64,000 nt of DNA from an uncultured Candidatus Saccharibacteria bacterium (GTDB lineage Bacteria; Patescibacteriota; Minisyncoccia; Phycocordibacterales; UBA9973). The stretch is taken from assembly GCA_964596395.1 (NCBI GenBank), contig CAZQSY010000001.1:27763-91762 (forward strand). The letters are read 5' to 3'. The position numbers were made by a program, and so were the translations under genes. A model generated the notes under the pieces. That model searched no databases. It saw only the letters and a list, made by a program, of their open reading frames with translations, and was not told where the DNA came from. Below are positions 23,292-38,371 of this stretch, one piece after another. Position 1 is the first letter of the stretch. Each line of letters opens with the position of its first letter.

Positions 23292-23365
23292 TGCGGGATC
23301 GTCTAAAGGTAGGACGTCGCTCTCTGAAAGCGAAAATTTTGGTTCGATTCCAAGTCCCGCAGCCA
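23292..23365 (+). tRNA. tRNA-Gln (anticodon CUG), CCA encoded
   Basis: hand-folded cloverleaf: U1-A72, G73 discriminator (Gln-like), D 4 bp, anticodon stem TCGCT/AGCGA, loop CUCUGAA, T-loop TTCGATT. Confidence 0.75.
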
Positions 23366-36715: not shown

Positions 36716-37180
36716 CTATTCCATTATTGTGACGGGTATCAGGATAGACTTGTCGTTTTCTGGCAAACCGGAAGCGTTATCGTTATGAATCTCGATATAA
36801 GCCGGCCCCGGAGGCAATTCGCGAAAATCCAGCGAACCTGCAAAAGAAACCGGGCCGGCAGTCATCCAATCAGCAGTCGCCTCGGCATTCCCCGCCTTCA
36901 ATAAATTTCGGTCTCCGTTTAAAATATTCACCAAGATATTCGCTTCGAAGAAATATCCTCCCTGCAACACACCCTGAAACGGCAGAATCCCGCCAACTTT
37001 TTGCCCCGGCGCAATCGAAAAAGAAACAATGTCCTCTTTATTTCCTAAAACACGCGAAGGAAATATCTCAGGTCCGTCAGGCGTCAAAGGAGGCGATATT
37101 TTTTCCCGCGTCAAAAAAATCGCGAGTGTTACACCGGCTATTACGATTACAAGCAAAAGTAATTTCCCAAATTTAGTCAT
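36716..37180 (-). CDS. secreted protein with Gmad2-like immunoglobulin-like domain
   Basis: signal anchor + pattern GGYFFEANILVNIL...G...A; moderate. Confidence 0.35.
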   Translation of the reverse strand: MTKFGKLLLLVIVIAGVTLAIFLTREKISPPLTPDGPEIFPSRVLGNKEDIVSFSIAPGQKVGGILPFQGVLQGGYFFEANILVNILNGDRNLLKAGNAEATADWMTAGPVSFAGSLDFRELPPGPAYIEIHNDNASGLPENDKSILIPVTIME

Positions 37181-37407
37181 AATTGTTCCAATATTTTCTC
37201 AAACTCCTCCCATGAAATCCCTAATACATCCAGATTGTTTTTCACGATGAACTACGGAAGCGGGTTATCCAGCGGAACGATAATTGGTCTAATCAAATCT
37301 CCACGTGAGTAAACAAAATGGTCACCTTTGATTCGTACGAGCGAGCATCCCACATAACTCAAAAATTTTCTGAATTTCTTAGGGGTTATGCTTTGCTTTT
37401 TAGACAT
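37177..37407 (-). pseudogene. hicA: hicA-family mRNA-interferase toxin gene interrupted by in-frame TAG (codon 52, + coords 37252..37254)
   Basis: manual translation MSKKQSITPKKFRKFLSYVGCSLVRIKGDHFVYSRGDLIRPIIVPLDNPLP*FIVKNNLDVLGISWEEFEKILEQL; HicA pattern (GxxxxRxxGSHxxY...G..TVP.H...L..GTL..IL.QAGL); ATG overlaps hicB stop. Confidence 0.6.
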
Positions 37408-37678
37408 AGCACAAATCCATCGACTGGACGTAATTCGAAATAACAGTAGAAGGCTCCCAATTTGATTTTATTCTACGCCAGCCAAGATTAACAAGTACTT
37501 TGTCCAAAGTCACCATGCGCGTAAGCTCTCCAAAAAAAACTTCAACCGCCTCTCCAAAACATGATTGGACTTTATGGTACGTTTTTGCGGAAGTAGAAAG
37601 GTCAAGAGCCGGGCCGTATGCAACATAGCTCTTGCCTTCCTTTAAAACAGTAACCGGCAAATTTACCTTGGGATTCAA
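37400..37678 (-). CDS. hicB: HicB-family antitoxin-like protein (UPF0150 fold, no obvious DNA-binding extension)
   Basis: VTVLKEGKSYVAYGPALDLSTSAKTYHKVQSCFGEAVEVFF matches HicB N-domain pattern. Confidence 0.5.
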   Translation of the reverse strand: MNPKVNLPVTVLKEGKSYVAYGPALDLSTSAKTYHKVQSCFGEAVEVFFGELTRMVTLDKVLVNLGWRRIKSNWEPSTVISNYVQSMDLCYV

Positions 37679-37750
37679 TTTTTAAATAACTTATCCATTC
37701 TACTAAATTAAAACGGAAAAAACAAACTTACCTATCATTGATTTCTAATT

Positions 37751-38371
37751 TCAGTATGGTTTTTCGTTGGGGGGAAAAAGATCAAAGTACTTCTTTGGGA
37801 TATGATGCCATTGAAACCATACAAATTCCCTGCCCTGAATTTCGAAAGCTATACCATACAAATAAGATTCTGGAATTATTATTTGTGGACGAGAATAGTT
37901 GCCATAACTAATATGATTTTTCCAAACATCTAGACGCATAACGCGAAAGTTTTTACCCCTCAAAATTTCCTTCGCGTTCGGAAACCTGTCTAGTAGGTCC
38001 ATGTCAGAGATTGCACCTAAAATATCTATCCCTTCCCTGGGTATACCCTTGAAATCTTTCTTGAATGAATCAAGCCACTCTTTCCCTTGCACCGAAGGGA
38101 AATTAAGGAATGCATAATAAAGTTTTAAGGCTTCCTGTTTTACAAGATCTCTATCGTAATCTTTGTGCTGATATTTTAACAAAAACTGGTCTCTAACTTT
38201 TTCGAAATTAACAACGAGACTATCCTGAGCTACTTCAGTTTTTCTACTTTTAAAGCTCTCTTCCTCTTGAGATTTCTGTGCCAACACACCTTTATTTACT
38301 GTCCCGATACTAAGCCCCAAGGATGTAGCACCTATTATGAGTTTTTCTAGAAATTTACTTTCCATTATCAC
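37751..38371 (-). CDS. hypothetical secreted protein
   Basis: signal anchor; no family recognised. Confidence 0.3.
   Translation of the reverse strand: MIMESKFLEKLIIGATSLGLSIGTVNKGVLAQKSQEEESFKSRKTEVAQDSLVVNFEKVRDQFLLKYQHKDYDRDLVKQEALKLYYAFLNFPSVQGKEWLDSFKKDFKGIPREGIDILGAISDMDLLDRFPNAKEILRGKNFRVMRLDVWKNHISYGNYSRPQIIIPESYLYGIAFEIQGREFVWFQWHHIPKKYFDLFPPNEKPY

Follow-up and report, generated by a model that had tools for sequence, protein, structure and literature searches.

The 64,000-nucleotide stretch of DNA analyzed here (the window) carries on its minus strand a locus that is, in all likelihood, a Class 2 hicBA type II toxin-antitoxin cassette of Patescibacteria (Paceibacterota-like) in an early stage of decay, with no recoding of a stop codon. 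The events leading to its present state can be pictured as follows. In intact relatives, an extended −10 promoter that lies 6 to 9 nt before the ATG of hicB would drive transcription of the operon, giving a leaderless mRNA, and hicA would be translated by coupling via the ATGnnTAA overlap of the two genes. In the window, the codon for Gln52 of the toxin (CAR) would have been changed to TAG, and translation would stop after β3 with the release of a 51-aa product. The start of hicB would have been damaged as well, by the changes of ATG to ATT and of the next codon to TAA and by the loss of the TG of the −10 box. Loss of the antitoxin supply would be tolerable only once the toxin was dead.

The hicBA cassette and its products

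The hicB-like open reading frame (minus strand, 37678..37400) has 92 codons, from a TTG start to a TAA stop (37402..37400). It overlaps by 8 nt (ATGTCTAA, 37407..37400) the hicA-like frame (minus strand, 37407..37177), which starts with ATG (37407..37405), comprises 76 codons including the TAG, and ends with TGA (37179..37177). The translation of the hicA frame is MSKKQSITPKKFRKFLSYVGCSLVRIKGDHFVYSRGDLIRPIIVPLDNPLP, followed by the premature TAG that replaces Gln at codon 52 (37252..37254, minus strand), then by FIVKNNLDVLGISWEEFEKILEQL, encoded by 24 sense codons, and finally by the TGA. Codons 1 to 51 (37255..37407, minus strand) encode α1 and β1 to β3 and include the invariant GDH motif, the His30 codon of which is at 37320..37318 (minus strand). 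Codons 53 to 76 and the TGA (37177..37251, minus strand) cover α2 and α3 and are in frame and conserved. All of these positions, the overlap, the TAG at codon 52 and the 24 in-register HicA-like codons had been given in a preliminary description of the locus, and direct reading of the minus strand bore them out. The same description had called the HicA frame unannotated. In fact, its 51-aa fragment, which is the sole product expected if the TAG terminates, already has an entry in the protein collection (P0004, from both NCBI and Logan), as do the LemA, HtpX and Gmad2-like proteins of the window. It is the HicB open reading frame that is absent from the collection, in its 92-, 86- and 38-aa versions alike.

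The probability of finding 24 open codons after the TAG by chance is (61/64)^24, or about 0.3, and the length of this stretch alone is thus not significant. It goes beyond chance because of its sequence similarity to HicA, not because of its openness. Indeed, when the frame was bridged across the TAG, the 76-aa sequence matched Pfam HicA_toxin (PF07927) over profile positions 2 to 57 of 58 with 28.8 bits (gathering cutoff, 27), which confirmed the assignment to HicA; the encoded 51-aa fragment reached 23.8 bits and stayed under the cutoff. The bridged frame aligned without gaps and from end to end with intact 76-aa homologues (72 to 78% identity), and the homologue P0001 is identical to it at 18 of the 24 positions downstream of the TAG (counted from the sequences). 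The profile of the HicA family also matched solved structures of HicA-family proteins, namely, 1whz (E value, 1.4e-5), 9svk and 5yrz_B. The GDH motif occupies residues 28 to 30, and G20 and H30 are invariant in an alignment of 25 sequences (alignment A4); H30, which lies in a Gly-x-His motif, is presumably the catalytic His of HicA. A 2,871-aa protein with a "HicA-repeat" match (P0032; E value, 5e-22; 13 matched stretches) was rejected as a low-complexity false positive. In this Ig-like repeat protein, the repeated "IINNNVHLVG" sequence mimics the segment "FIVKNNLDVLG" of HicA, and the protein should be kept out of HicA alignments.

An uninterrupted full-length HicA reading frame is absent from the window owing to the TAG at codon 52. 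The consequences for the protein were read from the structure that AlphaFold2 predicts for P0001, an intact homologue of the same length (pLDDT, 90.5). This model has α1 at residues 9 to 18, β1 at 22 to 27, β2 at 30 to 34, β3 at 42 to 45, α2 at 52 to 62 and α3 at 66 to 75, and codon 52 thus corresponds to the first residue of α2. In the 51-aa product, α1, all three strands and the GDH motif remain, but α2 and α3, one third of the chain, are lost, and with them one of two fold-defining helices. On the basis of the model, it is most likely unstable or unfolded and nontoxic.

The identity of the antitoxin was less apparent. Neither the HicB of the window nor any of its 23 homologues had a significant match in Pfam or NCBIfam, including the HicB, HicB_lk_antitox and UPF0150 profiles. 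In the PDB, TTHA1756 (2yzt) was the sole sequence match of the family, and a weak one (E value, 0.055), and one homologue, from a Candidatus Paceibacterota MAG, is named HicB family antitoxin by NCBI. Fold comparison identified the fold of the HicB N-terminal domain: the model consists of three strands, a long helix, a short helix and two short strands, without an RHH or HTH domain. Moreover, the gene adjoins hicA and is co-oriented with it, with the 8-nt overlap in the window, and this pairing is kept in 63 loci with intact hicA. Therefore, the pair is a hicB-hicA module whose HicB is recognizable only at the level of the fold. At the position where the DNA-binding domain otherwise sits, the subfamily has a C-terminal tail of about 28 aa with the pattern LGWxxxKSNWxPPVVxSNYxQ (residues ~63 to 92 in the window; 37400..37490, minus strand), and it may be through this conserved tail that HicB contacts HicA.

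Class 2 has been described as hicBA modules with a small HicB of 63 to 103 codons that lacks a DNA-binding domain and with genes that often overlap (Gerdes, bioRxiv 10.1101/2023.12.08.570793; PMC10865869). It was called the most common bicistronic arrangement, of which no member has yet been tested experimentally (Gerdes, PMC10865869). The module in the window has every structural feature of this class, that is, the order B then A, a HicB of 92 to 96 codons, no DNA-binding domain and an overlap, which, as in Class 2, suggests translational coupling. hicB precedes hicA in 63/63 related loci with an intact hicA as well. The order of antitoxin before toxin, which had been listed as the reverse of the canonical one, is therefore no anomaly, because the module fits Class 2. 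Unlike Class 2 modules, the window has a toxin with a premature TAG, an antitoxin without an ATG and a HicB subfamily without a Pfam or NCBIfam match. The structurally characterized HicAB and HicBA systems are more distant, with a sequence identity to the window of only 11 to 25%. The HicB of Burkholderia pseudomallei HicAB (6g26, 6g1c) has a C-terminal RHH or HTH DNA-binding domain, whereas that of the window has the ~28-aa tail, and the RHH/HTH domain on the HicB of Streptococcus pneumoniae HicBA (5yrz) and Yersinia pestis HicA3B3 (4p78) is likewise absent from the window HicB. TTHA1913 of Thermus thermophilus (1whz) is grouped with these RHH/HTH-bearing structural systems, unlike the window. 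A separate observation is that the HicB tail weakly matches the N terminus of FemX (LGWAKVKNNWEP; E value, ~0.01).

Two neighbors flank the module. Downstream and outside of it lies the gene of a 154-aa membrane-anchored Gmad2-like protein (36716..37180, minus strand), the match of which to Pfam Gmad2 is borderline (25.6 bits; cutoff, 25.7). The TGA of hicA overlaps the ATG of this gene in an ATGA junction (37177..37180), which looks as if its translation were coupled to that of the full-length frame of hicA; in other genomes the Gmad2-like neighbor is unrelated to the cassette. A 206-aa open reading frame (37751..38371) between LemA and the cassette had no Pfam match.

TAG as a stop codon

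In the window, TAG ends several genes of confident identity. One is LemA, for which the profile match reaches the last position (149/149); others encode a histidine kinase, which ends in its HATPase domain, a glycosyltransferase and an epimerase. No in-frame TAG was found in the long genes of the window (1,286, 774, 672 aa and others), and none of its five tRNAs has a CUA anticodon. Of the 63 intact hicA genes in related loci, 14 naturally end in TAG, and a stop at codon 52 of hicA is absent from all of the ~90 loci. Thus, recurrent in-frame TAG codons, a suppressor tRNA and a stop conserved in orthologues, any of which would speak for recoding, were all lacking within the window and the relatives. 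TAG acts as an ordinary stop here, and the change at codon 52 is a plain nonsense mutation, because TAG ends genes here, there is no suppressor tRNA in the window and no relative has TAG at codon 52. The notion of a toxin truncated by the TAG is therefore upheld, and the local stop-codon readthrough that had been offered along with it finds no support.

These data bear directly on the idea of a reassigned TAG, in the whole genome or in this element, that would encode Gln (as it does in some phages) or pyrrolysine. The only point in its favor is that the TAG stands at a Gln position, Gln being the residue used by TAG-recoded phages. The many genes that end in TAG at the expected C terminus, the long genes free of in-frame TAG, the five tRNAs without a CUA anticodon and the same-phylum relatives whose hicA ends in TAG all argue against it, and we regard it as almost certainly wrong. 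An alternative genetic code was rejected on the stop-codon usage in the window, and pyrrolysine was rejected on the ancestral Gln and the absence of tRNA-CUA from the window.

The ancestral state of codon 52 was deduced from related loci. When species-representative genomes were scanned with the HicB alignment, 80 loci were obtained, mostly from Patescibacteria (Nomurabacteria, Paceibacterota, Saccharibacteria-labeled MAGs and others) and a few from Elusimicrobia, Omnitrophota, Nitrospirota and Chloroflexi; 14 further loci came from searches of proteins and metagenomes. An uninterrupted hicA of 74 to 78 aa directly follows hicB in 63 loci. In the family, the two genes are up to 18 nt apart or overlap by up to 23 nt, and eight loci share the 8-nt overlap of the window. 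All of the ~20 to 24 close relatives examined (sets of 3, 9 and 8) have Gln at codon 52, encoded by CAA (six) or CAG (three) in the first set of nine and by CAA or CAG in the eight metagenomic relatives; distant members of the family (~60) have Val, Ile, Ala or Pro. The simplest history would be a change of CAG to TAG by one C-to-T transition. A syntenic orthologue of the locus was not found: the flanks of the cassettes in L001, L003 and L085 are unrelated to the neighborhood of LemA, 206-aa protein, Gmad2-like protein and HtpX in the window, and the flanks differ in every locus examined. As judged from these flanks, the hicBA cassette is mobile.

The ancestral Gln is also a point in favor of leaky termination, in which a few of the ribosomes would read UAG with the near-cognate tRNA-Gln(CUG) and restore Gln; functional toxin would then be made in sharply reduced amounts, and the TAG would attenuate its expression instead of knocking it out. 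Gln insertion at UAG has been reported in suppressor-free Escherichia coli, and a tRNA-Gln(CTG) gene is present in the window (23292..23365). Natural near-cognate tRNAs insert Gln at UAG in yeast (PMC4150775). Furthermore, the codons after the TAG are unrelaxed and the stop codon of hicA overlaps the start of the next gene. Against this stand several observations: the stop is not conserved in any relative, with no hint of selection for TAG; at other genes of the window, TAG terminates efficiently; the stop is followed by U; and the hicB start that feeds translation of hicA is destroyed. U after a stop codon is a strong termination context in E. coli, and basal readthrough is typically far below 1%. 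We therefore consider leaky termination very unlikely. A TAG that serves as a throttle, such that the trace of wild-type HicA would be tolerable under an impaired antitoxin and the downstream frame and the ATGA junction would be kept by selection, strikes us as highly improbable.

The start region of hicB

In addition to the nonsense mutation in hicA, we found damage at the start of hicB, which is new relative to the preliminary description. In 15/15 close relatives, hicB begins with ATG, then AAA, AAG or AGA, and then AAA; the window reads ATT-TAA-AAA-TTG, as seen in a codon-register table, a DNA alignment (A1) and the stop-bounded frames. The relic of the native start (37682..37687, minus strand) thus has ATT (37687..37685) at the place of ATG and TAA (37684..37682) at the place of AAA, AAG or AGA. 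The only in-frame starts left are two TTG codons, one at 37678 and one at 37660, the latter preceded by AAGG (37669..37666). The earlier view that the antitoxin was retained holds for the reading frame, which is open, but not for its conserved start, of which only the TTG candidates are left. The open frame with its two TTG candidates, one of them after AAGG, is at the same time an argument against reading the locus as decayed.

The region upstream of hicB gave a clue to how the native start may have been used. In 15 close relatives, a TGnTAnnnT box lies 6 to 9 nt before the ATG of hicB. Across the family, a TAnnnT sequence was present 4 to 10 nt upstream of 32 of 42 hicB starts versus 44 of 175 control open reading frames (Fisher P = 2e-9), and the TG extension was present at 16 of 42 hicB starts versus 6 of 175 controls (P = 9e-9); the 5′ ends examined in relatives were those of L001, L003 to L011 and L084 to L091. 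Family members outside the Patescibacteria have Shine-Dalgarno sequences upstream of hicB and no leaderless-type box. In the window, a −10-like hexamer, TAGAAT, is found upstream of hicB (37697..37702, minus strand), and the TGn extension of most close relatives reads TAG here; a simple sigma-70 promoter scan made no call before hicB in the window (weak −35). Because the extended −10 box lies only 6 to 9 nt before the ATG, the data suggest that the hicB mRNA of the relatives is leaderless, with the AUG at its very 5′ end. As leaderless initiation requires a 5′-terminal AUG, the change of ATG to ATT should, in that case, cripple translation of hicB and of the coupled hicA. The lack of any HicB version of this locus in the protein collection, which does contain its neighbors and the 51-aa HicA fragment, agrees with a lost start. 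Antitoxin synthesis in the window is probably reduced or abolished, as far as can be told from the start region. HicB may still be made from a TTG, especially with read-in transcription from the co-directional upstream genes.

Age of the lesion and decay across the family

Apart from these lesions, the cassette is well preserved. In the 24 codons after the TAG, pN/pS was 0.239/0.974 in comparison with nine close relatives and 0.193/0.749 among the intact relatives themselves, with synonymous sites being saturated. At the 21 HicA columns conserved in at least 85% of the 63 members, the window has no deviation (0/21). Within the close clade, the window deviates at 4/39 columns of HicA and 5/39 columns of HicB, which is slightly above the relatives and would be equally well explained by early branching. 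Since both frames, the stop aside, are intact and conserved without relaxed constraint, the lesions, and the stop in particular, look recent on the scale of the sampled divergence. The preserved frame after the TAG and the TGA/ATG overlap would be equally expected if translation continued through the stop, and to that extent they speak against decay.

The flawless state of the rest of hicA raises the question of whether the TAG arose through faulty sequencing or assembly, or represents a minority variant that became fixed in a MAG consensus, the population having CAG and a functional hicBA. The source sequence appears to be a metagenomic contig, and a single C-to-T change is all that separates CAG from TAG. 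However, the 51-aa product is found in NCBI and in an independent Logan assembly, though probably from the same reads, and the further, independent damage to the start of hicB, where ATG has become ATT and AAA has become TAA, fits real decay better than a lone base error. An error or minority variant thus appears unlikely to us. An exact-DNA scan of metagenome contigs for strain variants, in which the 33 nt around the TAG were used and codon 52 itself was masked, gave no match.

If the cassette of the window is indeed decaying, it is not alone in its family. In L090 (702-932), the conserved Arg25 of hicA is hit by an independent nonsense mutation, CGA to TGA, and in L036 (3260-3510), a change of GGA to TGA in the GDH motif is combined with a frameshift. 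hicA has a frameshift in L018, in-frame deletions in L023 and L043, and a truncation in L024. L006 (3264-3300) has an intact hicB and a hicA deleted after codon 4. Six to seven loci (L037, L051, L053, L067, L070 and L073 are listed) have a truncated hicB and no hicA, and in L066, L080 and L083 only remnants of hicA are left. Toxin decay, as read from these sequences, is an independently recurring event in the family, and the window is at the mild end of the series.

Solitary hicB genes have been reported (Gerdes, PMC10865869). The window resembles orphan type II antitoxins and degraded toxin genes in that the toxin is inactivated and the open reading frame of the antitoxin persists; in the same family, L006 has a solitary hicB, and hicA is broken in L018, L023, L036, L043 and L090. 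Unlike in orphan antitoxins, the start codon of hicB itself is gone in the window, and a function as an orphan antitoxin is therefore doubtful.

Toxin genes of toxin-antitoxin modules are often knocked out, and the window provides one more example, from a poorly studied phylum. For an in-frame TAG in a genome of the candidate phyla radiation, the usage of TAG nearby should be checked before recoding is called. Beyond the single locus, the analysis documents a widespread subfamily of Class 2 hicBA in Patescibacteria with a HicB that current Pfam and NCBIfam models miss, and the −10 box right before the ATG of hicB in relatives, which suggests leaderless expression, may bear on how a HicB without a DNA-binding domain is regulated.
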